Of a DNA stretch of 64,000 nt, positions 3,121-63,460 are shown one piece after another (the stretch's first letter is position 1; each line of letters starts with the position of its first letter). Where the stretch lies: contig CAIIXF020000001.1 of the NCBI GenBank assembly GCA_903813345.2, forward strand, positions 620,001-684,000. The letters run 5' to 3'. The translations under genes and the position numbers were made by a program. The stretch comes from Owenia fusiformis (Eukaryota). Below the pieces are notes generated by a model. That model was not told the DNA's origin, did not search any database, and saw nothing but the letters and a program-made list of their open reading frames with translations.

Positions 3121-3309
3121 CAATCCCTGATGGGAAAGATAAACTTCTGAGGTCCAAGAGAAATTGAAGAATTCAAGATTGTACAAAAAGGAAGGTTAAA
3201 GCCCCTGATTGATCAATCTGAGTGATTTATATTCAAAGTTAGAAAGCTATGAATTTTATTAGATGTAAATGAGCCTACCCGGTGGTAACTTATCAATGTT
3301 TTTGCTTAC

Positions 3310-4656
3310 TTGCAGCAATGCCGTGTTGTCCTCAGAACAGATGAAAATGAAAACTACATCTTCTGCGACAAAAGATACAGAAACTGGCGTGCACTATACC
3401 TGCATGTAAGACAACACTATCTATCTCTCAAATGTACATACATATCCCCTGAAGGCCGTCCATGTATGTATTCCTGTGACAGAAGAAGCAAAACTTTGAT
3501 GGAAAAACATATGAAAATGCATGATGTACTTAAACAAAAAATGGTGGGTGAAACTAACCTCGATGAAAGCCTAACAGATATATTTACAGGAAATGTTAAC
3601 TTGTTAAGTGTTGACGATCAAGAAATATTCCTTGATGATTCCGAAGTGAACAGAATTCTTAATGAAGAAACTGATGTAAAAGTACCAAAACCTGAAGAGA
3701 AGCCAGTTAAGAAGGTAGCCAAGAGAAGTACACCACTACGGATAAAACTGAAGGAGAAACGGCGAAATAGGAAGCCAAAGCCAAAGGGATGGCAAAGAAA
3801 GGCACATGTCCCTAAAAGAAAGATATGTTCAAAGGAGTTTATTGATACCTCAAGTAGTGATGACACAGATGATGTCAAAGATGATAAATATGGGTATAAA
3901 AGTGATAACAAAGATGATGTCAAAGATGATAAATTTGGGTATAAAAGTGATGATACAGATGATGTCAAAGATGATAAATATGGATGTACAAGTGATGGCA
4001 CGGATAGTAGAACAGTAAAATTTGGTGGATTTGATGATCAAGTAGGGTCACAAGCAGAATGTGATATGAACAGAGAGGTAGGAGATATATGTACTGACAA
4101 ATGCGATGAAGCCTCAAATGATGATAAAGCAGATGAAGCAACGGTTGAGAGGACAGTGTATTTCGGGCACAAAGAAGTTGGACTCAGACTCAAAGAGGAG
4201 CATACTGAAAGTGAAAGATCTCCAGCTACATCTGAAAAAGGAGACTTTGCCATTATTCAGATACCCTCGGAGCGTGAGTTGTCTTTTGAGGAAGGGGGTA
4301 ATAATGCTGGGAAAAGTAGTAGCAAGATGACAAGTGACAAGATGAAAACGAAACATAGAGATGATCAATCTGACACAGTCCCTAAAAGCATTAAAGAAGC
4401 CCAAAGATCTATGAAGACACAGTATGAGGAGAGAGATTCATCGAGATCTCCAAGGATAAAAGTGAAAAAATCTCCACAATCTTCAAAGACACAAGTTGAG
4501 AGAGATGATCACCCAGTCTCACCAAAGAGAATTTGTGTATTCATTTCAAGCCCAGTTAGAGACAAAGAAGTCGGTCCAGACCCTCTCTCAGCAATAGCTG
4601 GTGGTCTGCTTTTATTAAACGACTATGGATCTTCAGAGACTAGTGAGGAGGACTAA
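3310..4656 (+). CDS. Intact ORF with two C2H2-like zinc fingers and an acidic/basic low-complexity tail, directly 3' of Gypsy pol
   Basis: 448-aa open frame containing C..CDKRYRNWRALYLHVRQH and CTYISPEGRPC..MEKHMKMH. No ATG at the start, but an acceptor-like tttttgcttacttgcag ends at 3315. Confidence 0.6.
   Translation: MQQCRVVLRTDENENYIFCDKRYRNWRALYLHVRQHYLSLKCTYISPEGRPCMYSCDRRSKTLMEKHMKMHDVLKQKMVGETNLDESLTDIFTGNVNLLSVDDQEIFLDDSEVNRILNEETDVKVPKPEEKPVKKVAKRSTPLRIKLKEKRRNRKPKPKGWQRKAHVPKRKICSKEFIDTSSSDDTDDVKDDKYGYKSDNKDDVKDDKFGYKSDDTDDVKDDKYGCTSDGTDSRTVKFGGFDDQVGSQAECDMNREVGDICTDKCDEASNDDKADEATVERTVYFGHKEVGLRLKEEHTESERSPATSEKGDFAIIQIPSERELSFEEGGNNAGKSSSKMTSDKMKTKHRDDQSDTVPKSIKEAQRSMKTQYEERDSSRSPRIKVKKSPQSSKTQVERDDHPVSPKRICVFISSPVRDKEVGPDPLSAIAGGLLLLNDYGSSETSEED
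3856..3996 (+). repeat. Three 45-bp in-frame tandem units (SDDTDDVKDDKYGYK)
   Basis: Visible in both DNA and translation. Confidence 0.85.
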
Positions 4657-15280: not shown

Positions 15281-16844
15281 AATCACACAGTGAGTCTTCA
15301 CCCCTTCCATAGAGCCTTATAAATGAGAACAAGACGGTAAGTGACATATTCGGGGTTTTTGGTCCTAATAGAGCACGTTACCAATTCTATGATTTTTGTG
15401 GAAGCAGGACCAGAAACTTCACAGAACCAACGCAAAAATAATATATTTCCAACGAGTAATGCACTCTGTCTAATGACTACATTGAAAAGTTATGGTTAAT
15501 AAGAACTTAAAACTTGAAATGATAGAGATCATTATCCCATGTTGACACCCAAATAATACAAAGCGTCATATGTAGACGTCCATTCCGAAAAGAAATGTGG
15601 AACAAAAATCAAAATCGAAATAAGTAAATAAATGAATAAAAACAAAAAATCTTCGAAATATGTTGGAATTATTTTACAAAATGAAATATTTACTTCATTA
15701 CAAAAACTGATAAAAAAATTAAAAAAAGTATCATGATATTCACATGTACACCGATTTCAAAAGGCAAATTTAATTGTTTAACTTATATGTTGTTCAACTG
15801 TTTTTGTAAATTAGAAACGTAATAGCCTTGATCAAAGTAATGAAAAACATAAATCTGTACTTACAATTGCAAAATTGATTAACGGCAAACATGATAAAAG
15901 CAGTTAGAAAATGAGTATTCATGTGTACGTACAATTGTTTAAAATAGACGAACCCTAATTGCCCCCAAACAACACCTCCACCAATTATTCAGAAATCACG
16001 AAAATCATATAATCTGTTGTGACTTGACCATTTCTACATTAGCCTACATAGGTTTAGAGGTTACCAGGCTTTACAGTCGGATGTTTAAACAGACTACAAA
16101 ATCCATCAATTTTGGACCTGTTGTAAAATCATTTTGGTTAGGAAAACGATTGGACCGTGTGGACATGGGCAAGCACAAGTAAATGTATCAAAAAAAGGTA
16201 AGGCCAAACGCGTAAAGAAAAGCGGTCAAGAGGAAAACAGACCCCAATATCCCTAACCATTGTGTTATTTGTACATTGCATCAGTGTATAATTAGTTACT
16301 TAATTAACTGTATAATGTTTGCTCGCGCACCATTCAGGAACAACCACCACGATCAAGGAACAACAAAACAATTTGAAAAAGTAGACTTAGTAGATAAAGA
16401 ATTTGATGCAAAAAGGATACAATGGGTTGACATTTAACGATATTACTTCGGGACTCTACTTATAAATGTATTGCATGTATTAATACAAAGCTCTATAAAT
16501 TTGATATAGTCATGAGCGTTGGTAACGTAAATTATTGCCATTAAATCATAGTAATGGTATTGATTCATTAGCATATACAATAAAGTACATAAATTAATGA
16601 TAGAAGTTTGTGTCGGATGGAATGAATGTGTATCAGTAGTATAAAAATAGTTGAACTGTGTCCATGTCTCAAAACAATACATTCATCAAATCTGCTGATT
16701 GATGTGTCAGTGTTGTCTTCTGTCTATCTATATATCAAACAAACAACCAGATATTTTGTTTCCGAATCGATAAATAAAATAATAAATGCAAAAATAAGTA
16801 CAGCTTATAAGTACAACACAAGAGATGTACCTTTGCAGAAACAA

Positions 16845-17930
16845 GTATAGCACCAGAGGAACCAATAATGGGGTTACATTTACTGAACCGTATGCATCCA
16901 TAATGGGGTTTCAAATATAGCACCATATGCACCAATAATGGGGTTACAAATATAGCACCGTATGCACCAAAAATGAGGTCACATATACAGCACCAGAAAT
17001 AAACCAATAATGGAGTTACAAGTACAGTACCAGGAACCAAACCAATAATGGGATCACAAATACAGCACCAGGAATAAATCAATAATAATTGCATCATATG
17101 CACCAATAATGGGGTTAAAAATACAGCACCATATGCACCAATGACGGGGTTACAAATACAGCACCATATGCACCAATAATGGAGTTACAAGTACAGTACC
17201 AGCAGCACCGAAAATGAGGTTAGAAATACAGCACCAGTAATTAACCAATAATGGGATTACAAATATAGCATCATATGCACCGATAATAGGGTTACAAGTA
17301 CAGTACCAGATGCACCAAAAATTGAGGTCACATATACAGCATCAGAAATGAAACAAGAATGGGGTTACAAATACAGCACCATATGCACCAATAATGGGGT
17401 TACAAATATAGCACCATTTGCACCAATAATTGGGTTACAAATATAGCACCATATGCACCAATAATTGTTTTACAAATATAGCATTATGTGCATCAATAAT
17501 GGGGTAACAAGTGCAGTACCAGATGCACCAATAATGAGGTCACATATACAGCATCAGAAATGAACAAATAATGAGGTTACAAATACAACAGCTTATACAC
17601 CAATATCGGGGTTACAAATATAGCACTATATGCACCAATAATGGGATCACAAATACAGCACCAATAATGAACCAATAGTGGGGTTACAAATACAGCACCA
17701 TATGCATCAATGACGGGGTTACAAGGACAGCACCAGATAACCAAAAATGAGGTCACATATACAGCATCAGGAATGAATCAATAATAGGGTTACAAATATA
17801 GCACGATATGCACCAATAATGGGATCACAAATACAGCACCAGGAATGGACCAATAATTGGGTTACAATACAGCACCAGAAGTGCACCTATAATGCGGTCA
17901 AACGTACAGCACTAGATGCACCAATAATCA
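16845..17930. repeat. ~35-bp minisatellite (atacagcaccatatgcaccaataatggggttacaa)
   Basis: About 30 diverged tandem units. Confidence 0.9.
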
Positions 17931-19065
17931 TGTAGCAAGTTCAGAACCAAATGCACAAGTAATGAGATGACATAAATATGACTCTATTGTGTGATTACCT
18001 AGCGACCAAGCGGATTAGTACCGGAGGTTAAGCCATTGCCAGACCAACGGAACAGTAGGTAATGATACAATTTGAAACAAAAATACTCTCTCCTCTGTGT
18101 GGCAGCCGGGGGACCCCTTTGTATCAATTATCAATGATTATTTATGTTTGGCTATTTAAAAATATTCCTCAAATTTTTATATATTCCCAGTGTTGTAATT
18201 ATGGAAAGACATCAAGATTGCTCACAGGCTTTGAAGTGCTACTGCAATGAAAACGTCCGGTTCTGATTGTGTATATGTGGATTTCGGTGAACTGAATTGC
18301 AAACATACATCTACAGCACAGCACAGCATGTCTTCATACCACGTTGAAATATTATGTACATACATTCAATTGATGCGGAAACAAATCATCATATTTAAGT
18401 ATACTTTAACTATTCCAAATTAGGTTTATGCTTTTGATATCTAAGATAATGAAATAAAACAAATGAACTTTCAATAAATGTGAGAAGCTCTAAGAAATTG
18501 TAAAAGCACAACGTAATTCTATATAAAAATGCATGTAAATAAAAGCTCTATAACGACATGGTATTCGAAACAGTCCAAACAGTTTACAAGTGAAAACACA
18601 AAAAACATCTAAATGATAACTAGATATCAGAACATGCATACATGGATGAGCAAGACAGAAGCATACCGCATCAGATCGTATCTAAATCAATTTCTCGCAT
18701 GGTGAGACGTTCGTGGGTGACTTGTATATTTAACACTCTGTCACGGTAGACAAAGCACACATCCCGTGATTAAAGCCAAGATGCGCAGAATAGCTCAAGC
18801 GTGGATGCAACAAGAATAGTACACCAAGCAGATATGTACATGTACCAAGAATATATGAACCAAGCAAAAGATGCACCAAGCATGTTTGTAAGTCGTTCGC
18901 ATATTGTTGCTTCGGGAGTATCGTCATTGTGGCATTTCTAAACTTATTACATAAGTAAATCAAACGTTTGAAATTTTACGCCATCGCCTGAATCCAATAT
19001 CAATTTCTATGAATATGCGTATTGTGACTTATCAATGTTCAGTTTATTTTGTGTTTTATACTTAC

Positions 19066-19148
19066 AACTTTCAAACATCATGGGGCATTTCTGCTCATCT
19101 AGTGGATATTTTGCAAGATCCATTGGGCATGTAAGCGTGGCTGTAATT
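19066..19148 (-). CDS. Cys-loop ligand-gated ion channel, Cys-loop exon (83 nt)
   Basis: gtttcag|...|gtaagt boundaries. Translates (K)ITATLTCPMDLAKYPLDEQKCPMMFES, a C-x13-C Cys loop of glycine/GABA-A/GluCl type. Phase matches the previous exon. Confidence 0.95.
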
Positions 19149-20176
19149 CTGAAACATCAAAGATGAAATACTGAAAACATAACAACATAACACAAGATAA
19201 CATAAACAAACATATCAAACAAGCTTTGGCAGTATTCGAGCTAGGGATTCAAGTTACCCGGTTACAAGCATACACAATCATGTATCTTAATGTACTGCGT
19301 AACATCGATGCTTGAAATCTGATAAGTTCAAGTTAAAGCGATCGAAGGCGGTTGAATATTGTCGTTTCTATACCTATAACGGTAAACACTCGTACTTGTG
19401 TGATGTAACAGAAAAGAAGAATTTTATGGTTTATAATCACACTAACACGTGCCCGATGATCGGAAAAATTGGGCGGAGTGGGGGAGGGGGCAGGCAATAT
19501 CTGCAAGAACATTCAACAAATCTGGAAGATTTGTTTCTTAAAGAAAACGTTTACCATTGAATTGCTGGATGAATAGGTGCACGGTATGGTAAAATATGTT
19601 TGGTCTTCTAGGATTTTTCTAAACCGATGCGCTTCTATAAAGATATTAGATCTATTAGGTAAGGCGCAACGCCACCAACGTGCAAAAGTCAATGTTTTTG
19701 CTATAAATCAAGCAAAAATGATCTTGACGACCAGTAATGAATATTTGTAATTGACGTTATCATATCAAAATTAATGCCATTGCTGACTTTACAAAATGAC
19801 TTTTCATACGTTATATAAAGAACAATCGAAAATAATCAAAAGAGGATGGAGGAGGAGAGGGGGAGTAGATGTCTATAAGGTGAAACAAATTTAGATAATT
19901 CTTGTATTTGGGAAATGAACTCGGTAACTCTGTAAGAAACTGGATGTTACATCTCTGAAAAGTGCAAGATTTGGAGTTATGAAACATAAAGTCAAGTATC
20001 ATCTCTTATCATGTCTATCTATACGCATTTAGAAAAAATGATTATAACGTTTAAAGAAAGTATGCTAATTATCTGCGTGTGAGCTGAAATCATGTCCAGA
20101 GGATCGTCCTGAGAAATTCAGTATAAATGGAAATCCCCACTTCATTATATATTCTAGATTCTATATAGAAACTTAC

Positions 20177-20403
20177 TTTGAGGCATACCACACTCGTCCG
20201 TCTGGAAACAACCTTAGCAATCTGTTTGGTATTGTGACATAATGGTATTGAGCTTGTTTCTCATTGCGGAAGAAAACATCGGGTACCCAGATCTTCTCCC
20301 ACATTCCGTCTTCTAATTTTAACATACCTCTTGTTTTGTTTTTCTTGTCAGCGAGTCTTGGGTCGGTCCATTGTTGTCGTAAATATATATTGATGGAGTA
20401 ATC
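20177..20403 (-). CDS. Cys-loop ligand-gated ion channel, loop D/A/E exon (227 nt)
   Basis: ttttcag|...|gtaagt boundaries. Translates DYSINIYLRQQWTDPRL...EKIWVPDVFFRNEKQAQYHYVTIPNRLLRLFPDGRVWYAS, with the family WxDxRL and WxPDxFFxNEK motifs. Confidence 0.95.
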
Positions 20404-20875
20404 CTGAAAATTATTAATTTTGTCAAAATATATAAATTGAGTAATCCTGAAATGCTTAATGTCGTAAATATATGAACTGAGTAATCCTGAAATGATTAAT
20501 GTCGTAAATATATGAACTGAGTTATCCTGAAATGATTAATGTCGTAAATATATATGATCTGAGTAATCCTAAATGATTAATGTCGTCAATGTATATTAAC
20601 CCTTTGCCTCCCATAGTGTTTTGGGCAATGAATGAAGAAATCCTGAAATTATTAATGTCGTCGATATATGTCAATTGAGTAGTTCTAGAATGATTATTAT
20701 CGTCAATATATATGAATTGCGTAATGCTGAAATGATCAATGTCGTCAATATATATGAATTGAAGAATCCTGAAATGATTAATGTCGTCAATGTATATTAA
20801 TGAAGTAATCCTAAATGATTGATTGCATCAATAAATTTGAAGTGAGTAATGCTGAAAATCATCAATGCCGTAGAT
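20376..20875 (-). repeat. 40-bp tandem array derived from the acceptor and 5' end of exon 20403-20177
   Basis: Unit gtcgtaaatatatgaactgagtaatcctgaaatgattaat (starts at 20461, 20501, 20541) matches the real junction gtcgtaaatatatattgatggagtaatcctgaaaattattaat. About 11 units. Confidence 0.9.
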
Positions 20876-21153
20876 ATAGAGTTGAAATTTTGAGATGATC
20901 CATCATATAAAAATGACATCAATGATATTCATGTTGTCCAAAATTTATGATATCAGTAATGAATAAATGAGATAGTAATGAAAAATATTCTTTCAAAAAT
21001 ATCAAAGATCGATCCAAACAATATTACAACAATCATCAAAGACGAAAAGCGACTATTTGCACTAAACGTAGATTTTAAAAAGTCCCGCCATTTTATTATA
21101 TTATGTGAAATAAACATCCATTAGTGGACTTTCATTTTTTAATTTTCACTTAC

Positions 21154-21218
21154 CATTGTTTGTTCGCTGATTGCATAGAAACTATTGATGTATATGCCTA
21201 GTTCCACTACGGTTGGAC
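21154..21218 (-). CDS. Cys-loop ligand-gated ion channel, beta1-beta2 exon (65 nt)
   Basis: ttttgcttacag|...|gtaagt boundaries. Translates (G)PTVVELGIYINSFYAISEQTM, comparable to glycine receptor GPPVNVxCNIFINSFGSIAETTM. Phase-0 join to DYSINIYL. Confidence 0.93.
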
Positions 21219-23551
21219 CTGTAAGCAAAACATACTTCAGAACTTTTGACTTATAGAAACTATTGATGCATATGCCTCGTTCCACTACGGTTGGACCAGC
21301 AAGTAAACCACATATCAGAACGCTTGACTTATAGAAACTATTGATGCATATGCCGAGTTCCATTACGGTTGGAACTACAAGTATACCACACATCGGAACA
21401 CTTGACTTATAGAAACTATTGATGCATATGCCGAGTTCCATTACGGTTGGAACTACAAGTAAAACACACATCAGAACGCTTGACGTAAAGAAACTATTGT
21501 GGCATATGCCTAGTTCCATTACGGTTGGACCAGCAAGTAAACCACACATCAGAACGCTTGACTTATAGAAACTATTGATGCATATGCCTAGTTCCATTAC
21601 AGTTGGACCAGCAAGTAAACCACACATCAGAACGCTTGACGTAAAGAAACTATTGATGCATATGCCTAGTTCCATTACGGTTGGAACTGCAAGTAAACCA
21701 CACATTAGAACGCTTGACTTAAAGAATCTATTGATGCATATGCCTAGTTCCATTACAGTTGGACCAGCAAGTAAACCACACATCAGAACGCTTGACGTAA
21801 AGAAACTATTGAGGCATATGCCTAGTTCCATTACAGTTGGACCAGCAAGTAAACCACACATCAGAACGCTTGACGTAAAGAAACTATTGATGCATATGCC
21901 TAGTTCCATTACGGTTGGAACTGCAAGTAAACCACACATCAGAACGCTTGACTTAAAGAAACTATTGATGCATATGCCTAGTTCCATTACGGTTGGAACT
22001 GCAAGTAAACCACACATCAGAACGCTTGACGTAAAGAAACTATTGAGGCATATGCCTAGTTCCATTACGGTTGGACCAGCAAGTAAACCACACATCAGAA
22101 CGCTTGACTTAAAGAAACTATTGATGCATATGCCTAGTTCCATTACGGTTGGAACTGCAAGTAAACCACACATCAGAACGCTTGACTTAAAGAAACTATC
22201 GATACATATGCCTAGTTCCATTACGGTTGGAACTGCAAGTAAACCACACATCAGAACGCTTGACTTATAGAAACTATTGATGCATATGCCAAGTTCCATT
22301 ACGGTTGGACCAGCAAGTAAACCACACATCAGAACGCTTGACTTAAAGAAACTATTGAGGCATATGCCTACTAGTTCCATTACGGTTGGAACTGCAAGTA
22401 AACCACACATCAGAACACTTGACGTAAAGAAACTATTGAGGCATATGCCTAGTTCCATTACGGTTGGACCAGCAAGTAAACCACACATCAGAACGCTTGA
22501 CGTAAAGAAACTATTGATGCATATGCCTAGTTCCATTACGGTTGGAACTGCAAGTAAACAACACATCAGAACGCTTGACTTAAAGAAACTATCGATACAT
22601 ATGCCTAGTTCCATTACGGTTGGAACTGCAAGTTAACCACACATCAGAACGCTTGACTTATAGAAACTATTGATGCATATGCCAAGTTCCATTACGGTTG
22701 GACCAGCAAGTAAACCACACATCAGAACGCTTGACTTAAAGAAACTATTGATGCATATACCGAGTTCCATTACGGTTGGACCAGCAAGTAAACCACACAT
22801 CAGAACGCTTGACTTAAAGAAACTATTGATGCATATGCCTAGTTCCATCACGGTTGGAACTGCAAGTAAACCACACATCAGAACGCTTGACTTAAAGAAA
22901 CTATTGATGCATATACCGAGTTCCATTACGGTTGGACCAGCAAGTAAACCACACATCAGAACGCTTGACGTAAAGAAACTATTGAGGCATATGCCTAGTT
23001 CCATTACGGTTGGAACTGCAAGTAAACCATACATCAGAACGCTTGACTTAAAGAAACTATTGATGCATATGCCTAGTTCCATTACGGTTGGAACTGCAAG
23101 TAAACCACACATCAGAACGCTTGACTTAAAGAAACTATTGATGCATATGCCTAGTTCCATTACGGTTGGACCAGCAAGTAAACCACACATCAGAACGCTT
23201 GACTTAAAGAAACTATTGATGCATATGCCTAGTTCCATTACGGTTGGAACTGCAAGTAAACCACACATCAGAACGCTTGACTTAAAGAAACTATTGAGGC
23301 ATATGCCAAGTTCCATTACAGTTGGACCAGCAAGTAAACCACACATCAGAACGCTTGACTTAAAGGAACTATTGATACATATGCCTAGTTCCATTACAGT
23401 TGGACCAGCAAGTAAACCACACATCAGAACGCTTGACTTAAAGAAACTATTGATGCATATGCCTAGTTCCATTACGGTTGGAACTGCAAGTAAACCACAC
23501 ATCAGAACGCTTGACTTAAAGAAACTATTGAGGCATATGCCAAGTTCCACT
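21175..23551 (-). repeat. 78-bp tandem array (about 30 units) derived from the acceptor and first 44 nt of exon 21218-21154
   Basis: Minus-strand unit translates GPTVMELGICINSFFKSSVLMCGLLA and runs directly into the real exon GPTVVELGIYINSFY. Confidence 0.95.
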
Positions 23552-23939
23552 AATATAATAAACATGCCGGAAGATGGTGAGAAAATAGTTCACAATTACA
23601 AAAATGAAGGCATAGGCAGAACACGTACCAATTAAAAGTACCACTACAGCTTCGAAGAGGCTCACAGGCATCATGATACAAAATGTCTTTCATTTGTTCA
23701 TGAACATTTTTCACAAAATATTCGATCGTAATCATTAACTTAAAGCACCTAACGTAAAACAACCTATACGCGCTATAATAAACTATTTTGGCTCACACTG
23801 TATATGATACAGTATAATCAATTCCCTTGACCCATCCGGTATAAGAAATAATCTAATCGAAGGTCATTGGCATTGAAATCAAATACGTATAATGTAATAT
23901 GTATAAAATTAATGAGTGCAAGTACCAATATCAAATATC

Positions 23940-26551
23940 ACTTCATAAAAAGTAATATAAGATGGTTTCAAATGTGGTATTCGATGGTTTCGATTTTTCC
24001 GTTTTTTTAATTCTGCAAAGTGATTTTCTCAAAATTGTCATTTTTATCTGCTTGTTCAATGTTTGCTGGGTAATAATTTCCCAATTGATAAAGGAAATAT
24101 GCTATGCTTTTGAAATATATAGAGGTTATTTAATTGGAGGGATGGAGTATGAATTTTATTCCGAGGGAAAATATGATATTTTTTCTATTTTTTCAATTCA
24201 ATTCACTTCATTTCAAATGTTTCAAATACAGTAGTTGACATGAAAAGACACCCCGAGGGGTGTATAAGTTCCATGTTTAACATACAATATATCATTTATT
24301 AAATTAACAGTCAGGTTATATGGAAAAAATGACAAAGCATAAAATGCATCATAATAAAATACAAGTAATGAGAAGAAAGCATTTTTCAAAGAAGATCTAA
24401 TAATGACTTAGCAAATCAAACTTTAACTTTCGTTCAAATGATTTGATGTGTTTAGACTTTTTGAGATCAAGTGAAAGAGTATTGTAAAGTAATGGGCCAC
24501 TTGTTTCAATTGATTTTCTTCCAATTTCTGTTCTAAATTTTTTAACAGTTAAATTCTTATTAATTCTCGTGCCATGATTATGAATTGCTGTTCCTGGAAC
24601 AAATAAATGTTTGAACCTTTGAAAAGGAAATTCTGGTGATTCTGAAACAGTTTTCTGAACAAAGCTAGCGGTTTGTAGTCTATTGATGTCAAATATATTC
24701 AATATTTTCAGTTTTGAAAAGAGAGGTCCTGAAGGAGCTAGACGATCAGAATAGGTGATAACTCTCAAAAATTTATTTTGCAGAACAAATTTTGAATAAG
24801 AGTTTTTATAGCATTTCCCCATAAAATGTTACAATAGCTTAAGTAGGAATAAATCATGGAGTAATAGATAGTGGTCATTGTAGTTAAAGTCAGTCTATGC
24901 CTAGTCTTGTAGAGAAGTCCTATCAAGTTAGACATTTTTGTACAGATAGCATTTATGTGAGATGACAATTCAGCTTTGAATCAATAATGACACCTAGAAA
25001 ATTGATTTCTTTAACTTCTTCTATAGGTTGTTCATCAATTTTGAGAACAATATTGTTTTTATTAGGAACCTTCTTTTTATTAAATATCATATATATTGTT
25101 TGTTCTACATTAAGAGTTAATTTATTAGATTTCATCAAGTTAGAAACAGTTTTTAATTCAGCATTCATATCTGAGACTAGAGTTCCATAATTTATATTGA
25201 TATTAAATGTATGTCATTTATAAATATTTTAAACAAGAGGGGATCTATGACGGAACCTTGAGGGACACCATATTCAACTTTATTTTTACCGGATCTATAT
25301 TTAATATCTGTAGTTGTAAATTGATCAATCAAGACATTTTCTTAACAATTTATGTGACCATAATTCGATTTTCGAGATAACTTTTGAACCAGGAAAGAGC
25401 TGTTCCACGAATACCATAAAATTCAAGTTTTTGTAATAATATTTTGTGATACACTGTATCAAAAGCCTTAGTCAAAGCAATGAATATCCCAATGCTAGTT
25501 TCCCCGCTATCTAATGACCTGCGAATATTTTCAATGAAATTTAGAAGTGCCATATAAGTTGAGTGCTTCTTCCTGAAACCAAATTGTTGTAAATATAAAA
25601 TTTCATATTTTTCTAAAAATGTTGTCACTTTTACATGAACAATTTTTTCAAGCACTTAATAATAAAAAAATACACTGGGAATTGAAATTGGTCTATAGTT
25701 ATTGAATTTATCTGTAAGGCCTTTCTTATAAATTGGAATTACTCTAGCTATTTTTAATGCATCAGGAAATGTACCAGTAGTTATTGATAAATTGAAAATC
25801 TGAGTAAGAGAAGTTGACAAAGATTTGTTCAGTGTTTTCACTTCTCTGGGTTCTATATCATCTATAGATGCAGCAGAGTCTTTTAAAGATTTTGACATCA
25901 GTTTCAGTAATAGGTGTTAGAAATATTGAGTTATTATTTGTATTAGTTTTCTTTAAATTTACCATTGGATCTAGATTATTGTTTATCTTCTTAGCTATAT
26001 CGAGACCATCTGTGATTTGTCTATTTTCAAGATCAAATGCATCGTTGATATTAGATTGATTTTGATTTGGATATTGGCCAAGGAAAATATCAAATTGACC
26101 AAGGGCGATAGCCTGAGTGTCAATATGTTATTTTCCGAGGCCAATATCATATTTTCTCAAGGAAAAAATTCATATTTCATTACGACTTTCAATAACCTAT
26201 TTATTCTATAATAATTTTCTAAAACTTATTTATTTTTAATTTTTGTATGTCATCACCCAATGATTGTGACATAAAATGATACAATTTACCATGTTACATT
26301 TCCACCTTTTATTAACAAGTTTTAATTAAAAATATAAATGATTAATAGCACTGGAGAAATTACAGGGAATATATACGGGATTTTTGCTGATACGGGATCC
26401 AATACAGGATTTTGACTGATATCAATTTTATTCCCTGTTATTTTCCCGGGGAAAATATTATTTTGGAATAAATCAAATATATTCGTCACTCGTGGATTTC
26501 AATATCAACTCTGAAAATCATATTTTTCAAAACGATAGGATATTCCTATAA
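23940..26551 (+). mobile_element. Non-autonomous element related to 38007-38587, interrupted by the CR1/L2 LINE; left boundary approximate
   Basis: Shares tattcgatggtttcgattttt (~23978-23998) and the end taggatattcctataat (to 26551) with the 38.0-38.6 kb element. Confidence 0.5.
24190..26040 (-). mobile_element. 5'-truncated, degraded CR1/L2-group LINE (ORF2 RT fragments)
   Basis: Fragments FPDALKIARVIPIYKKG..NYRPIS, QFGFRKKHST..LTKAFDTVYH.ILLQKLEFYGIRG, GVPQGS and FLGVIIDSKL. Short aattg repeat tail near 24190-24210. Confidence 0.9.
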
Positions 26552-31300: not shown

Positions 31301-32299
31301 TTGCTCTATCTATAATGGTTTATTTTGATGTAATAAGAAGATCCATTCGGGTTTGCCTAAGGCTATATGTCAAATTTTTGTCTTATTGTTCATTTCAATT
31401 CTGTTTTGTATATTGTTATATTAGTCAATATTTAATTGTATGCCTACTGTTACGTTCGAAAATAACAGAAAGTAAAAACAGCAATTAAAATACGATAACA
31501 ATATATTTATATTTTGAAAACTAAATAATATAACAATAATATAAAGGAGGTTTAATACTTATGTGATGTCCAATCAATGATACGGCTTATTCTTGATGTC
31601 GATAAATGTCGTTGACGATACTTGAGAATGTTCCGGATCACGAAATGTTTCAATAATCGTTAATAGTTCTCCAATGTTTGTAATAATCCAATAATGTTTG
31701 TTGTAATCCTATAATGTTCGTATCCAATAATGTTTGATGATAATCCACAAATGTTTGATGATAATCCACAAATGTTTATGATAATCCACGAATATATATG
31801 ATAATCCGTATATAATGTTTGTTGTAATATATGTCCATATAAAGTCCTCAGGTTGTATGTTTGTAGTGTTATAAATGTTCCCACAGTAATTATCTGCTAA
31901 GAAGATGTCCTTTTGATAAACTTTGAAATTCTGCTTTATTTAGTTCCTTTTAGATGTCCAGTTATGATTACTTAATTATCTGCTACTGAGTCCACTTTGC
32001 AGTTTTATTTATAATGTGAAAGAATCATCTAGAAAGAATCTTCTGGAACTGAGACTACTTGTTGAGTTTTGATTGGACATCTCCAGTCACATGATTAAGT
32101 CTTAATGAATGGTTATATTTTCTAGAACTCTCTGGATGGTCAAGAGTTAATGAGTCATTCAGTTCAGTTCTGTTTACAAGATACAGTGTATAATGTCATT
32201 GTGACCTTGACCCAAGATCTCTAATAAAGATCAGTTACAGTATATACATATAGATAAACTAAACTTAATGTGAATATAATAGAACATAATACTGTAACA

Positions 32300-32966: not shown

Positions 32967-35908
32967 CTAAGAGCACAAGCTCATGTTGAGTAAAGAAATT
33001 TTATCACGCTCAACATACTTTTTCATCATGTGTAGCTCTCTACACCTCACATGAGTAGTTTTATCAATGCCAATGAAATCATTCAGCACTGAGTCAGATT
33101 GTAAGTCAGATATAAGCTCCTTTGGTAGCCCAACTAATGTGAAATTGTTGATTTGTGATTTCACAATATACTTGGTTTTGCTATTTCTAAGCATGAGGAG
33201 TGATTTTATTGTTGGAAACCGTGTGGTCATAGATAAAATAGTGAGCAGATATTGACTATCAGATTTTGTTTTTGGTAATGGACCAACACAGTCAATAAGA
33301 ACCTTACTGAATGGTTCATCAAATGCAGGTATAAGTTGTAAAGGAGCAATTGAGATTTTCTGGTTAGGTTTCCCTACCATTTGACATGTGTAACAAGACC
33401 TACAATACTCTTGGACATCTTGTTTTAATTTGGGCCAAAAGAAATGATTGAGTATTTTATGGTATGTTTTAGTTACTCCTAAATGACCTGCCATGGGAGA
33501 ATCATGAGCTAGACTCAAGATTTCCTTATGATATGATTTGGGGACAACAATTTGATGTACAATTGCCCAATCGTCTTCAGGGGAAGCTTCAGGAGGTCTC
33601 CACTTTCGCATTAATATGCCATCCTTTTTGTAGAAACAAACAGGGACCTTGTCAGCTTCATCAATAGTAACAGATCTTTTATGAAGATCAATGAGTGATG
33701 GATCATGCTCTTGTTCATAAATTAACATGTGTTTAGAATGAGGATCATTTTTCAAAGAATCACTATCAGAAATAGAGGATGAAACCTCAGAACAAGGAGG
33801 AGATGAAACCTCATGAACACTAGCAGAAGAAGATGAAACTTCATCGGGACTAGCAAGAGCGGGCGAAACCGCATTAAAATAGTGATCCTGCTCAGAAGGT
33901 GATTCACCTCTGGCAATAGGCTTTTTCAATGAAGAATTTGCCTCAATAGATGACTGCTTGGCTTGAACAGAAGGCTGTTTCAATGAAGAATTTGCCTTTA
34001 AAATAGGATAAGGATCATCTTTAACAAGTGGTGAGTGACATTCATCATCAAACAAGGAGCTTAAAAACCCACTATCAAAGTCATCTCCCACAGACAAATC
34101 CCCGCTATTAGCTAACTTTTTAGCCATAGCCCTAGTAACAGCACAAGCAGGATATATATCAGAGTCCTCTTGGACAGAATCCTCAATAGAACAAGGCTGA
34201 TCAGAAACAATGGGGTCTAATGATACCTTACCCCCAGCTAAATCATTGCCTAAAAGCAATGCGACTCCTTCAACAGGAAGTTGTGGCCTAACACCAACAA
34301 TAACTGGCCCTTTGACTAACTCCGATGTGATATGAATACGATGGAGGGGAACTTTAGTAAATCCTAATTCAATGCCTTGCATCAAAATATGGGTACCTGT
34401 GAATGACTCCTCAGATAAAGGAAGGACACCTTCTAACAACAAGGTCTGAGATGCACCCGTGTCTCTAAGAATTTTAACTGGCTTTGAATTGGTATCATCA
34501 CTTGACAGTGACACAGATCCTTCCGACATGAAAGGCTTATAATCCTCCATAATATCACTATGAGTAGATTTCTCAGTATGAGTATATGAATCCCAAACAA
34601 TGGGCTTTCTTGAAATGGGAACAGTAGCACAACCATTTGAATGAGCAGAACCAGACATCTCTCTTCTATTCTTAATCCTATAGCATTCAGAAATAATGTG
34701 ACCAGGCTTTTTACAATAATTACAGGTGACATTTGATGTTGGACCTGACGATTTTGATTGATCTGATTTTGAGCTAGAACTCTGTGATGAATTAGACTGG
34801 TCTTTTGCTTTGTTTGATGTATTTGATGATGAGGACTGATTTGATTTTGTATCATATGAAGGTTTGTTACCTTGATAACCTCTAAAGTTAGGATTACCTT
34901 TGATAAAACTACCCTTATGAGTTAGAGCATAATCATCAGACAGGGTGGCAGCTTGACTTAAAGTTTCTACCTTGTGTTCATCTAAATAAGTTCTAATGTG
35001 ATATTGAACACAGTTTTTGAATTGTTCTATTAGCATAAGCTCTCTGAGCTTTTTGAACTCTTCAGATACATCTTTAGAGACAAGCCACCTGTCAAAAAGC
35101 TGCTCTTGCTCTCGAGCAAACTCAACATGGGTTTGGTCACTCTGTTTGTGGGCATTTCTAAATTTTTGTCTGTAAGCTTCTGGCACTAGTTCATAAGCTT
35201 TAAGAATCGCATTTTTAATAAGGTCATAATCAGAGCATACTTCTGCTGAGAGAGAGGCAAATATTTCACTTGCTTTACCAATGAATACACTCTGAAGCAT
35301 AACTGGCCATGCTGATTTAGGCCAATCGAGGCTTTGAGCGACTTTTCAAAATGCGTAAAGTATTTATCAACATTTTTCTCCTGAAATTTAGGTACAAATT
35401 TGAGAAATTTTGAAGCGTCAAATCTATTTTCAAAATGTTGATGCATAGTAGCATGTTCATCAGTTTTGGATTGAGCTTCTATTTCCAAACGTTTTAATTC
35501 AATTTCTCTTTGAATTTCTTGTTCTCTCATTTGTCTTTCATTTTCTCTTTTTTCTCTTTCATTTTGCATTTCTAACTCTTTTTCTCTTAATTCTTTTTCA
35601 TTTTGCAACTCTTTTTCTCTCCTTTCATTTTCAAGCTCTTTTTCTCTTATTTCAAGCTCTTTAAGCCTTATAGGATCTACAGGCTCAACATGCTGGACTG
35701 GCTCTACAATAAGCTTTAATGCTTCTTCTGGTAATATTTCTTCCGCTACCAAATATGGTACCAGAATATTTTTTATTGCACCTTTTCGGTATGAAGTTTT
35801 TACTGCCAAACCAACATGTTTTGCTAGTGCCAGAAGTTCAGTTTTCTTTAACTTGTCAAACTCCTCCAAAGAGGGCGCTTCTAAAAATGTCTCAACCTCA
35901 AAACTCAT
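32967..35908 (-). pseudogene. Gag-protease-integrase polyprotein, frameshifted at ~35345, with eroded integrase core and no RT/RNase H
   Basis: Coiled-coil N-terminus, YELVPEAYRQKFR capsid/SCAN-like region, CNYCKKPGHIISEC knuckle, ILRDTGAS protease, AH..GHLGVTKT..CRSCYTC integrase zinc domain, FSKVLIDCVGPLP. Adding one A restores FEKVAQSLDWPKSAWPVMLQ. Confidence 0.88.
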
Positions 35909-35990
35909 TTTTGATTAATTGCTGTCTTCACAATTTAGATATACAATTTTGGAATTTTGAATTTTATGAATTTTAGCTTGTTGTAGTTGT

Positions 35991-36008: not shown

Positions 36009-37323
36009 ATTTCTGTTACGTTCGAAAATAACAGAAAGTAAAAACAGCAATTAAAATACGATAACAATATATTTATATTTTGAAAACTAAATAATATAAC
36101 AATAATATAAAGGAGGTTTAATACTTATGTGATGTCCAATCAATGATACGGCTTATTCTTGATGTCGATAAATGTCGTTGACGATACTTGAGAATGTTCC
36201 GGATCACGAAATGTTTCAATAATCGTTAATAGTTCTCCAATGTTTGTAATAATCCAATAATGTTTGTTGTAATCCTATAATGTTCGTATCCAATAATGTT
36301 TGATGATAATCCACAAATGTTTGATGATAATCCACAAATGTTTATGATAATCCACGAATATATATGATAATCCGTATATAATGTTTGTTGTAATATATGT
36401 CCATATAAAGTCCTCAGGTTGTATGTTTGTAGTGTTATAAATGTTCCCACAGTAATTATCTGCTAAGAAGATGTCCTTTTGATAAACTTTGAAATTCTGC
36501 TTTATTTAGTTCCTTTTAGATGTCCAGTTATGATTACTTAATTATCTGCTACTGAGTCCACTTTGCAGTTTTATTTATAATGTGAAAGAATCATCTAGAA
36601 AGAATCTTCTGGAACTGAGACTACTTGTTGAGTTTTGATTGGACATCTCCAGTCACATGATTAAGTCTTAATGAATGGTTATATTTTCTAGAACTCTCTG
36701 GATGGTCAAGAGTTAATGAGTCATTCAGTTCAGTTCTGTTTACAAGATACAGTGTATAATGTCATTGTGACCTTGACCCAAGATCTCTAATAAAGATCAG
36801 TTACAGTATATACATATAGATAAACTAAACTTAATGTGAATATAATAGAACATAATACTGTAACACTACAATTGGCCATAATGGCCAAACTGTTCTTGTG
36901 CATTTTCTCTTCTCCAAAATTCAAAACACTGCAATTTCCTAAAGATTCCCTTTACCTGTTTAAAAGAAGGAATGTCGTCATATGAACTGATACACTGTGT
37001 GTTTCTTACATGTATATTACGTAGAGTGTCTGAAACACTTTAAAAATCTTGAAAATCTGTCAGATCTCTTATAATCTATGAACATTGAAATAATTCAAAT
37101 AAGAGTAAGAACCATGTTGATATATAATAATTTTCACCTTTCCTGCGATATTGCAATCTCATTAAAGTTTCATGCTAGTTTGTGCGATTTAATTTTTTTA
37201 GTTCAAATAAATAATTCTTACTTTTGATATTATTTTTAAGAGGTAAAAAAGTAATGTGCTCTTGGTATTCTGACTGAATGCTGAATGTGAAAAATGCCCC
37301 AACTGACCGCTACTATTTTTCTT

Positions 37324-44287: not shown

Positions 44288-44992
44288 AGCTGATGACAGT
44301 GACACTACATACACGCACGTAAACACATATATTGTAATAGCTGATGACAATGACACTACACTACACACACGCACGTAAACACACATATTGTAATAGCTGA
44401 TGACAATGACACTACACTACACACACGCACGTAAACACACATATTGGAATAGCTGATGACAATGACACTACACTACACACACGCACGTAAACACACATAT
44501 TGTAATAGCTGATGACAATGACACTACACTACACGCACGTAAACACACATATTGTAATAGCTGATGACAATGACACTACATACACGCACGTAAACACACA
44601 TATTGTAATAGCTGATGACAGTGATACTACACACACGCACGTAAACACATATATTGTAACAGCTGATGACAATGACACTACACGCACGCACGTAAACACA
44701 TATATTGTAATAGCTGATGACAATGACACTACATACACGCACGTAAACACACATATTGTAATAGCTGATGACAGTGACACTACACACACGCACGTAAACA
44801 CATATATTGTAATAGCTGATGACAATGACACTACATACACGCACGTAAACACACATATTGTAATAGCTGATGACAGTAACACTACACACACGCACGTAAA
44901 CACATGTATTGTAATAGCTGATGACAGTGACACTACACACACGCACGTAAACACACATATTGTAATAGCTGATGACAATGACACTACACACA
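44288..44992. repeat. 51-56-bp minisatellite (gtaaacacacatattgtaatagctgatgacaatgacactacatacacgcac)
   Basis: About 13 units; source of the ORFs at 44512-45135. Confidence 0.92.
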
Positions 44993-45841
44993 CCATTAGT
45001 GTGCCCCATGGCAAGTAACAAACAGAAAACGGTAGACAAAAACAAACAAAAACAATTGGACAAACGGAACGTTGACAATTTTATACCTCTAAAGAAAGCT
45101 AAGGGATGCGTAAAAATGTGTTCAATGTTTAACATTCGGCATATTCTTTATTTGAGAATACTTCGTCTCACATTGCACATTGAAAATATCAAAGCACACG
45201 TTTTGTTTTCAACGATGAAATACACGACTTGCACCAAAATGAAAGTTGGGAAAATACATAGTATAGTGTGGTAAAAACATTGGGTAATTTAAAAATCGAT
45301 CGTTTTTTGTCAGATTACAATTTTTTACTTTTCAGCATGAATAGACGGTTGGGATCTGAAAACAACCTGATGCCAGAGCGGCATCCCTGGGCAACTCTCT
45401 ACAAAGCATTTTCCTTATTCCCTAAACAATCCACAGGGGTAGTTTCAAACACACAGTAAAGATTAACAAATTGAGATGTGCTGTTCAAATTAACTGTCTT
45501 GCAGTCTCTTATTTTTGATTATGAAATATGATTAATACGATTTATTATGTCATTATACAATGTACATTAAAAAATGATTCCTGTATTTCATAATGTACAT
45601 CTAATAATGAATAAATATGAATTTTATCTTGGGGGTATGGTTTTCTATAGAGAGTTGCCAAAAGGTGCTGTTCGGGTCTGTAAACCTTCTATTCATGCTG
45701 AAAACATCGATACAGCTTCCAACATTTTCCCAGAAGATATAGTTATGCTGTATGATCGTGGTTGGGTATATGAAAACCATGCGATCCTACCACATAGTTG
45801 TAACTCACAATTGATTTGGAATCCAAGCATATTATGATATA

Positions 45842-60767: not shown

Positions 60768-63460
60768 TTTTTTTAAATTTATTTCTATCATTCATTAGCA
60801 TACAAATCAATATTTCAAAATGAAATATTTCAAAAACTTTAAATACATTTTCTCAATCAACAATGTTTCTAACATATTTTTCATATTCAAACATTACAGA
60901 TATATTTTTTCTCTCATTCTTTGAAAACTTAAAGTCATGTATTGTTTTCTTTATTACAAGTGACTTGTATAATAACTTTTTATCTAATATTCCCATCCCT
61001 ATTTTTTCATTATCATTCAAAGCTACATCTTTCCAAATATCTTTAATTGCATTACAATATATAAAAAAGTGTTCAATATTATCAACTTCGTTACATAGTT
61101 TACATAAATCAGATTGTTCTATGTTATATTTTTTAATAAACCACCATGTGGATATATACCATGGAAAATTTTCCATTGGATACTAAAAGACCAGTGTCTG
61201 ACGTACATTTAAATAGCTGATTCCAAATGTCTGAACCAATAGTCAAACCATTAAATTGTACATCACACTGCCTTTCTTTTACAAGCTTATTCCTGGTTTT
61301 CTGTGATGTTAATTTTTCAATTTCTATCCCTCGAAATACTAGTGTTTCACTGGGTTTTATATTACCATACATATGAATTTGATTTAAACAAGCTCTAAAA
61401 TGTTATATTGCATTAAAGTTTCAGCATTTTTCCTATTAATTCAGAAATTACCTCATATGCTTTTAAGTGTCCATTCACAACAACATCTGATATGTAGATT
61501 AAACCCTTTTCTATCCACTTGTGAAAGTACAAGGGATATCTACTTAATACAATATTTCTGTTATTCCATATTATAGATTCATCTGTATAATTGCTATTCT
61601 CAAGCCATGTAAATAATAATTTTTTATAGAAAATGCTCAAATGAGCGATACCTTTCAACTGATCAGCACTTATATTGCTGTTGAAAACACTAAACTTTTT
61701 ACCTAATTTTCCATACATATACTCTGGTATAGCTCTCCAGTGGCCATCGCCATTCTCTGTTAATCTTTTAATCCATTGAATCATGTATGCAATTTGTAAA
61801 TCTTTACAGTTAATCATTTTTAAACCACCACAATCATAGCCTTGTACTAAAATATCTCTTTTTACTTTATCAGGCACCTTTTTAAGGTCTTCCTCTTTGA
61901 ATTTTCCTTTTGCCCATATGAACTTGAACATCATGGTGTTAATTCTATTTAACAATTTATCTGGTAAAATAAATGATTGCATTAAATACGAAAATTGAGA
62001 TAGCAAAAGTGATTTAACAATGACAATTTTACCCATAACAGATAAACTTCTGCCATTCCATGATTTCATGATATTTTCACACTTGATACATTTTGGTTCA
62101 AAATTAACATTATTTTCAACAACACTTGTTGAAGGACTAAAGGTAATTCCTAAAATCTGTATACAATTTTCTAGATATATTTTCCATTTAATTTCACCAG
62201 GATTGTCCTTTCGATTTTTCCACTTAGCTAGCCACAAAGCTTCGGTCTTTTTAACATTTAATTTTAAACTCGACACATCATAAAAAGCTTTAAAAACATG
62301 TATTGTATTATGAAAAGATTGATGATCATGTAAAAATAAAGAGGTATCATCTGCAAATTGCAGTATCTTTGTTTGATCGGCACACCCTTGAATTTTAATA
62401 CCTTTTATGTTTTTTCTTGTCGAACCTTACAAGACAGTAGATCACAAGCTATTATAAATGTCAGTGGAGATAATGGGCAGCCCTGCCGAATGCCACGGTG
62501 CAGATTAATGTCTCCAATTACCCATCCATTATTTAAAATGTGGTTATGGCCATTTTTATTAATAACATCAACCCATTTGATAAATGATGGTCCAAAACCA
62601 AAGTACTCTAATGAATGCAACATGAATTCCTTAGATATCGAATCATACGCTTTTTCATAATCTATTGTTAGCATTATCCCTTGCACATTATTACTGTCAA
62701 TATATACAATCAAATCATCCACCGCCCTTAAAATTGTAGCAGCACTTCTACCTTTAATGTAACCACTCTGGTCTTCATGAATAATTGTTTTAATTACAGT
62801 TTTCAATCTATTAGCTAATATTTTCGTTGCAATCTTATAATCTACATTGGTCAGTGTCAAGGGACGCCAATTCTTTAACTCATCTCGAGGTAAGTTTTTT
62901 GGGAATTAATACCATTAAGCCAGTTTTCTGTGAAGGAGATAGTTCTCCTTTAACAAAGCCTTCATTTAAAGATTCTAGTACACTATTTCCTATTTTAACA
63001 AAGAACATTTCATAAAATGCAGCTGTTATTCCATCTAACCCTGGGCTGGATTCATTTTTCATACCTTTAATTGCTGCTATACATTCATCTTTTGTTATTA
63101 AACCTTCACACTTGTTTTTGTTTTCATTGCTCAGTTTTGGAATTTCGACCCCATTTAAGAAGTCATCAAGAGTTGCTTTCCTGTATTGTATTTTCTTTGC
63201 ATAGAGATCACTGTAAAATCTATTAATTTCAGTTGCAATTTGTTTGTTATCACTTACTTTTAAGCCTCCATTAAGTTTCAAAGAATAAATGTGTTTTTAT
63301 TGGCTTTTGCCTTTTCTAAAGACAGAAAACATTTTGTGCTTTTTTCTCCTTTTTCGGACCATTGTGCCTTTGACCGTATTTGTGCACCCTTTGCTTCAGT
63401 CAGTGATAACATTTCATATTGCATTTTACATTCATTTACCTTTTGATTATCTAGCTAATA
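60768..63460 (-). mobile_element. 5'-truncated L1/Tx1-clade LINE with frameshifted ORF2
   Basis: SPGLDG..FY, TLTNVDYKIATKILANRL, DYEKAYD, GIRQGCPLSP, QFADD and C-terminal CKLC..IEHFFIYC. AATAAA and a short poly(A) at 60768-60785. Confidence 0.92.

Follow-up and report, generated by a model that had tools for sequence, protein, structure and literature searches.

The stretch of DNA analysed here, called the window throughout, covers 64,000 nucleotides of the annelid Owenia fusiformis (GenBank assembly GCA_903813345.2, contig CAIIXF020000001.1, positions 620,001 to 684,000 of the forward strand). Its minus strand carries a gene for a glycine-receptor-like Cys-loop channel, with 100% identity to annotated Owenia fusiformis proteins. 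Two consecutive exons of this gene, exons 3 and 4, are each preceded by a tandem array whose repeat unit joins the end of the upstream intron, with its acceptor, to the beginning of the exon. The last unit of each array contains the authentic junction, and the remaining copies, referred to here as decoys, lie in the intron. The two arrays are probably independent minisatellites of a kind that has been described in amphioxus under the name of mirages.

The exons were placed by tblastn of the annotated 473-amino-acid (aa) protein P0004 against the window, and their exact ends were read from the sequence. P0004, which contains the domains Neur_chan_LBD and Neur_chan_memb, matches five exons on the minus strand (see the table). 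Its residues beyond 194 are unmatched in the window, and the rest of the gene therefore lies beyond the window start. The 75-residue translation of exon 4, which adjoins the shorter of the two arrays, is 100% identical to three annotated O. fusiformis proteins (427, 428 and 473 aa) and 60-69% identical to glycine-receptor-like subunits in other spiralians. The annotated proteins P0002-P0004 are continuous over exons 2, 3 and 4, and they use the exon-adjacent acceptors. The same channel gene also has, beyond the window start, a tandemly duplicated pair of alternative exons (GNTMETLHYKWL... versus GNTLDAVNFKWL...). The 427- and 428-aa isoforms contain one of these each (P0002 versus P0003), and the 473-aa model P0004 contains both. 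A matching pattern of alternative exon pairs is present in the paralogue P0010/P0012.

The array at the exon 3 acceptor is the larger of the two. Tandem Repeats Finder (TRF) describes it as 30.4 copies of a 78-bp unit with 93% matches at 21177-23549. On the minus strand, the unit consists of the last 36 nt of intron 2 and the first 42 nt of exon 3. The authentic unit and 29 full decoys make up 30 full units, and a partial unit of 30 nt stands at the upstream edge. A 3-bp insertion lengthens one decoy to 81 bp (22347-22427). Exon 3 carries on past the unit (ATGCAATCAGCGAACAAACAATG, then GTAAGT) solely after the authentic unit. At the acceptor position, where a slash marks the junction, 13 decoys read cag/TTCC and two read tag/TTCC, so that the AG is retained in 15 of the 29; in the other 14 it is lost (ctg/GTCC). 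The combination cag/GTCC occurs in the authentic unit alone and in no decoy. Agreement with the consensus is 72-78 of 78 positions in the decoys, five of which are identical, and 67 of 78 in the authentic unit. Of the 11 positions at which the authentic unit departs from the consensus, eight fall in the 36-nt intron part. The array shows no higher-order periodicity, with a mean identity of 72.9-74.3 of 78 at lags 1-12.

With a unit of 78 bp, or 26 codons, the array keeps the reading frame of exon 3. Only one stop occurs in the 29 units (in the unit at 22584-22661), and a 497-codon open frame runs from 22632 through the array into exon 3. Gene predictors could be misled by such arrays, given that this long open frame is joined to a real exon. 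A search of 8000 scored candidates (259-826 aa) found no protein relatives of the open frame at E <= 0.001. The decoys read PTVMELGICINSF where the real exon 3 reads PTVVELGIYINSF, and the paralogue P0010 (LGIYINSF) agrees with the real exon. Since the decoys differ from both exon 3 and P0010 at these conserved residues, it is the decoys that have drifted. In the cag/TTCC units (for example 23442-23519), a G-to-T change immediately after the AG places the decoy AG within a perfect 7-bp stem (AGTTCCA...TGGAACT), and the local fold is -9.8 kcal/mol at such an AG compared with -7.4 at the real site. As a signal for slippage or masking the hairpins are unremarkable, with whole-unit z-scores of -0.4 to -1.5.

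The array at the exon 4 acceptor is shorter and less regular. The unit length of 40 bp given in the original prediction agrees with the spacing nearest exon 4 (40, 40 and 43 bp), but not with the TRF consensus, which is 42 bp (11.8 copies, 74% matches, 20375-20857). Each unit combines about 13 nt of intron 3 (ttaatcatttcag) with the first 27-29 nt of exon 4 (GATTACTC...TTACGACA). The true acceptor AG is at 20405-20404, and all ten decoys upstream of the authentic junction retain the AG. The first exon-like bases of the decoys are at 20851, 20810, 20768, 20726, 20684, 20642, 20568, 20526, 20486 and 20446. As a consequence of the uneven spacing, frames vary and most of these decoys would meet stops. 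An unrelated insertion of about 32 bp interrupts the array at about 20596-20627. The lower identity and the insertion show that, compared with the 78-bp array, this one is older or has been homogenised less. The unit sequences of the two arrays are unrelated, which points to two separate events, and the difference in age suggested by 93% versus 74% matches supports their independence.

Table. Exons of the channel gene and junction arrays in the window (positions count from the first letter of the window)
Feature	Position	Strand	Description	Basis
Exon 1	51738-51589	-		tblastn of P0004
Exon 2	51278-51220	-	59 bp; donor GT 51219-51218; spliced over the ~30-kb intron 2 to exon 3	tblastn of P0004 and sequence
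78-bp decoy array	21255-23549	-	3' end of intron 2	TRF and sequence reading
Authentic 78-bp unit	21177-21254	-	acceptor AG 21220-21219	sequence reading
Exon 3	21218-21154	-	65 bp; entered in phase 1; encodes (G)PTVVELGIYINSFYAISEQTM; donor GTAAGT from 21153	tblastn and sequence
40-43-bp decoy array	20404-20857	-	occupies the last ~60% of the 750-bp intron 3	TRF and sequence reading
Exon 4	20403-20177	-	227 bp; begins DYSINIYLRQQWTDPRL; first 27-29 nt form the exon part of the 42-bp unit	tblastn and sequence
Exon 5	19148-19066	-	83 bp; without junction array	tblastn and sequence

Repetition of the junction appears to be confined to these two acceptors. Probes taken from nine junctions in the window were compared with 300 nt of the adjoining intron and with 500 shuffles each. 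The probes from the acceptors of exons 3 and 4 score above all 500 shuffles. Together with the TRF results and the tblastn placement of the exons, this bears out the original prediction of two unrelated arrays, each built from an intron end with its acceptor and the start of an exon. Its further claim, that the copies lie on the upstream side only and that the intact exon is the last unit, agrees with our reading of the sequence. At the other seven junctions (two acceptors and five donors) no repeat was found, and 65-478 of the 500 shuffles reach the observed score. A two-copy look-alike at the exon 5 acceptor was considered as a third junction duplication and rejected: 149 of 5000 shuffles reach its score, and so do 361 of 3000 random 33-mers from the adjacent intron.

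Raw reads from three RNA runs and from one DNA run (X24), all with the same species label, were aligned to 18900-24100. The RNA reads have a depth of 0.3-0.5 on exons 3, 4 and 5 and zero in the array bins, and they give no joint at the listing threshold; a depth this low carries no power in either direction. Run X24 is diverged from the window. Among its 1610 aligned reads, 1255 are 90-95% alike to it, and almost all of these fall on a dispersed repeat at 19422-19943. Neither the arrays nor unique intron sequence have any coverage in this run, which is thus uninformative on copy number in the genome of the window, but it reaches a depth of 1.5 on exon 4 and of 1.8 in the bin of the exon 3 junction. 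At this junction, six of six reads carry a synonymous change at 21208, and four reads join 21234 back to 21183, a step back of 52 with the letters between not known. The joint means that this individual also has the exon 3 junction in tandem, which counts against an assembly artefact. In X24 the repeat may have a register of 52 bp, or it may share the 78-bp register and have a middle part that has diverged. The dispersed repeat itself lies in intron 4, where the X24 reads of both directions together pile up to a depth of about 300 and where reads of the three RNA runs are found too. These reads are mostly 90-95% alike and have loose ends on both sides, and the repeat looks like a high-copy transcribed mobile element.

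The explanation that we favour, with a probability of about 0.72, is that slippage duplications gave rise to two independent mirage-type minisatellites, which were tolerated and were then expanded and homogenised. At the outset, a short segment straddling the 3' splice site would have been duplicated in tandem, with replication slippage or microhomology-mediated repair as the most likely cause; the segment would have measured 78 bp at the boundary of intron 2 with exon 3 and about 42 bp at that of intron 3 with exon 4. The extra copy would be wholly intronic as long as the spliceosome keeps to the acceptor that adjoins the complete exon. Such a duplication would be nearly silent and would escape purifying selection, which a duplication wholly inside the exon would not. 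The annotation of the gene and the precedent of other such arrays point to continued use of the exon-adjacent acceptor as the source of this tolerance. Once two copies were present, unequal sister-chromatid or allelic exchange and further slippage may have expanded and homogenised the arrays, as the pattern of identity between units suggests. The edge unit with the real junction would be held back in this process by coding and splicing constraint. Consistent with this, both arrays terminate exactly in the authentic junction unit, the exon continues past the unit there only, and the 78-bp array has the pattern of concerted evolution with the boundary unit excluded, its decoys being closer to the consensus than the real unit. 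The decoys decay freely, as is shown in the 78-bp array by the 14 lost AGs and by the altered conserved residues. The setting of the locus is also rich in tandem repeats (28 loci, 13.3% of the bases of the window), and this is counted in favour of the explanation.

The original prediction read the same geometry of the two arrays as evidence of a special process, but this geometry follows from any tandem duplication that contains an acceptor. When a segment of intron end (I) and exon start (E') is duplicated in tandem, the result is I E', I E' and then the rest of the exon, so that copies are found upstream only and the intact exon comes last. A selection filter adds to this effect. Exonic arrays are removed and intronic arrays go unnoticed, and the arrays that visibly involve an exon are therefore those that straddle a junction. 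A rough genome-wide extrapolation was made from the repeat density of the window, a genome of 505.8 Mb with 26,966 genes (PMC9977687) and an assumed number of about 8 introns per gene. By this estimate any one junction is spanned with a chance of about 1.5%, and the genome would hold thousands of spanning duplications, along with some tens of pairs at adjacent acceptors, without any special process. With chance pairs expected in such numbers, the window alone cannot separate chance from a junction bias.

Several observations weigh against the explanation by chance duplication and tolerance. Under a null of uniformly placed founder units in the span of the gene, 0.18 junction-spanning arrays are expected over the nine junctions and two are seen (P(>=2) = 0.0145). 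When only the four acceptors are considered, 0.08 are expected and two are seen (P = 0.0031). This excess within the gene leaves room for a junction-biased process, although the test of co-occurrence is post hoc, as the window was chosen for this feature. In addition, the upstream end of the 78-bp array (23549) falls in the middle of the exon-like part of a unit. A single clean duplication would not begin in this way, and at least one further event, such as an edge deletion, is required. The concentration of the differences of the authentic 78-bp unit in its intron part could also mean that the real acceptor region itself changed under selection.

An alternative that takes up the excess holds that mutation is targeted to junctions. 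Exon-intron boundaries would be hot spots of minisatellite birth, through breaks or template switching associated with co-transcriptional splicing or R-loops or through repair via splicing intermediates, and the neighbouring acceptors would both have been hit because the process recurs in this gene. The two arrays seen against 0.08-0.18 expected are in line with this idea, and so is the fact that both affected junctions are acceptors of consecutive exons. The joint in four X24 reads may represent another repeat register, of 52 bp, at the exon 3 junction. Several amphioxus genes have mirages, with units of 10-72 bp in Adh3, and the authors describe the mechanism as unclear and possibly general (PMC3087553). 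We nevertheless regard targeted mutation as unlikely. The excess was noticed after the fact, chance alone would by the rough extrapolation produce adjacent-acceptor pairs elsewhere in the genome, and the geometry is a necessary outcome of any tandem duplication. Neither the five donors nor the two further acceptors in the window are affected, and the arrays carry no mechanism-specific signature, the hairpins being ordinary. Nothing in the present data supports a mechanism coupled to R-loops or splicing, or a function as decoys, both of which had been suggested in the original prediction. It is similarly doubtful that, in certain slowly evolving genomes of marine invertebrates, junctions are true hot spots at which minisatellites arise, with the mirages of annelid and amphioxus reflecting a shared process coupled to transcription or splicing. 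If this were true, such hot spots could also drive intron lengthening, sliding and gain, and their footprints would be arrays at consecutive acceptors and possibly the other register at exon 3 in a second individual.

A functional role for the arrays is quite improbable. The decoy acceptors and polypyrimidine tracts might bind U2AF or other factors and so slow or regulate the splicing of exon 3, which has only 65 bp and follows an intron of 30 kb, or they might feed nonsense-mediated decay as a form of dosage control. An AG behind a pyrimidine-rich stretch is indeed kept in 15 of 29 decoys of the 78-bp array and in 10 of 10 of the 42-bp array. Half of the 78-bp decoys, however, have no AG and none has the authentic cag/G, and the 42-bp array is decaying, with its 74% matches and its insertion. 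The near absence of stops in the 78-bp array and its frame shared with exon 3 would suit such a role, but the open frame is unsurprising, since the exon contributes 14 of the 26 codons. The stable stem around the AG in AG-keeping units would likewise suit it, but the fold z-scores are ordinary. There are no RNA reads in either array, at a very low depth, and pseudo-sites of this kind are reported as silent in amphioxus and in human F7 (PMC3087553, PMC3902484, PMC1557585). The chance that the arrays or their copy numbers come from mis-assembled noisy long reads is very small. The BflGb6 mirage of amphioxus is reported to have been aberrantly assembled in a draft genome (PMC3087553). In Owenia, the units show structured, non-random variants (two acceptor types, five identical units), the exon 3 junction is repeated in the four X24 reads, and the DNA-type runs X1-X3 contain 0.34-0.59 of the sampled words of the stretch. 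The published O. fusiformis assembly is based on PacBio reads with an N50 of 25-30 kb (PMC9977687), and if the window comes from that assembly, arrays of 0.5 and 2.4 kb would be easily spanned by such reads. It is also highly unlikely that the units are worn remains of whole-exon tandem duplications, comparable to the mutually exclusive exon pair downstream in this gene (P0002 versus P0003; both in P0004), rather than duplications of a junction. The 78-bp unit begins with a sequence (TAAGTCAAAA) similar to the donor region of exon 3 (TAAGTGAAAA), but 214 and 512 of 2000 shuffles reach this resemblance, and a unit made of a whole exon and its donor was rejected for this reason. In the units, the final 23 nt of exon 3 and the greater part of exon 4 are missing, and none of them carries a usable GT donor at the corresponding position.

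Other repeats and mobile elements are found around the junction arrays. A third large array of the gene lies in intron 5 (16841-17966), with about 31 units of 35 bp and higher-order periods of 107, 285 and 320 bp; it adjoins no exon within the window and has no P0004 match in tblastn. Intron 2 contains an array of 13.5 copies of 51 bp with 93% matches (44288-44993), which has several open frames and is unrelated to the exons of the gene. This intron of about 30 kb also holds transposon remains, including an integrase/SCAN open reading frame (ORF) at 32967-35345. Two arrays of 7.8 copies of 20 bp (31673-31828 and 36239-36394), 4566 bp apart and with identical TRF statistics, flank the region 32967-35914 with this 792-aa ORF (integrase zinc-binding and SCAN domains), and they are probably the two long terminal repeats of a retroelement. 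Upstream of the channel gene, broken reverse-transcriptase ORFs on the minus strand (61413-63296; RVT_1, E = 3.6e-24 for 62405-62905) probably belong to a LINE-type element. A 455-aa open frame on the plus strand (3289-4656), in intron 5 and opposite to the channel gene, contains a 45-bp coding repeat at 3856-4005 (DDVKDDKYGYKSD...) and has no Pfam match.

The arrays of Owenia can be compared with several described systems. Tandem minisatellites that span an exon-intron boundary were described as mirages in amphioxus by Ebner et al. (2010, PMC3087553). The name goes back to Canestro et al. (2002), who reported units of 10-72 bp and somatic instability in Adh3 (cited in PMC3087553). Mirages are reported in the globin genes BflGb6 and BflGb9 and in other amphioxus genes, at both 5' and 3' boundaries and with splicing undisturbed (PMC3087553, PMC3902484), and Pavelitz et al. 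(2013, PMC3902484) added PGBD5 and troponin C (TnC). Concerted evolution from which the boundaries are excluded is described for BflGb6, and Ebner et al. call the generating mechanism unclear (PMC3087553). The BflGb6 mirage has the acceptor-side design seen in Owenia, combining the 3' end of an intron with the 5' part of an exon (PMC3087553). With 30.4 copies of 78 bp and 11.8 copies of 42 bp, both Owenia arrays fall within the head-to-tail units of 10-160 bp reported for mirages. Both also have a unit that holds the boundary and a terminal unit that is the authentic junction of an expressed exon. Many, though not all, units of amphioxus mirages retain the AG or GT, as in the 78-bp array. As to regular splicing, which is reported for the amphioxus mirages, the annotated Owenia isoforms use the authentic acceptors, and the RNA reads have a depth of 0.3-0.5 on the exons, with none in the arrays. 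Length polymorphism and somatic instability are features of the Adh3 mirage in amphioxus. The systems differ in that amphioxus belongs to the Cephalochordata and Owenia to the Annelida, in copy number (29 and 10 decoys versus 3-6 in BflGb6), and in that Owenia has two different arrays at consecutive acceptors, unlike the amphioxus mirages.

In human genes, Borensztajn et al. (PMC1557585) describe boundary-spanning variable number tandem repeats (VNTRs) with pseudo-splice sites on the donor side, where usually the authentic site alone is used. Their examples include F7 intron 7 (IVS7; 37 bp, 5-9 copies), intron 2 of IFI6/6-16 (25 pseudo-sites), CBS IVS13 (15-20 copies), LMNB2 (100 bp, 10-15 copies) and PDGF intron 4 (81 bp, 16-18 copies) (PMC1557585). 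Like the Owenia arrays, these VNTRs have a terminal monomer with the authentic junction and a splice site repeated in the intron (5-25 copies), with units of 37-100 bp. In the human genes, however, it is the first monomer that is authentic and the pseudo-sites are 5' sites, whereas in Owenia it is the last monomer and the pseudo-sites are 3' sites. The Owenia arrays are thus a mirror image of the F7-type arrangement rather than a case of it, and the 5'-to-3' scanning rule shown for F7 does not by itself explain the choice of the last among many acceptors.

Tandem repeats at boundaries have also been connected with changes in intron structure. In human segmental duplications, De Grassi and Ciccarelli (2009, PMC2812944) identified 27 intron modifications caused by internal tandem repeats at exon-intron boundaries, and repeats overlapping a boundary can either be removed by splicing or give rise to new introns (PMC2812944). 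Ebner et al. connect mirages with the Rogers model of intron gain by tandem duplication (PMC3087553). In Rogers-type gain, an exonic AGGT segment is duplicated in tandem and the new intron forms between the exonic copies. The Owenia arrays differ from this in that they appear to lengthen existing introns and to create no new intron or exon. Internal tandem repeats at exon-intron boundaries, or intron gain by tandem duplication, were reportedly treated by Gao and Lynch in 2009 as well.

In the literature searched, which left subscription journals largely outside, the term mirage is used for amphioxus only and no annelid is reported. The Owenia arrays are apparently the first case outside cephalochordates to be described as mirages. 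The interpretation offered in the original prediction is right in recognising a recurring type of structure, but amphioxus mirages and human VNTRs had already been described, and the system is not a new one. The question of whether chance combined with a selection filter or a junction-biased mutation produces such structures becomes concrete here for a chromosome-scale genome. With 29 and 10 near-copies directly upstream of the real acceptor in neighbouring introns of one neuronal gene, the locus also provides a natural test case for the choice of 3' splice sites. The Owenia arrays are a new example of a described kind, and they stand out from the known systems by their high copy number and by their position at consecutive acceptors.

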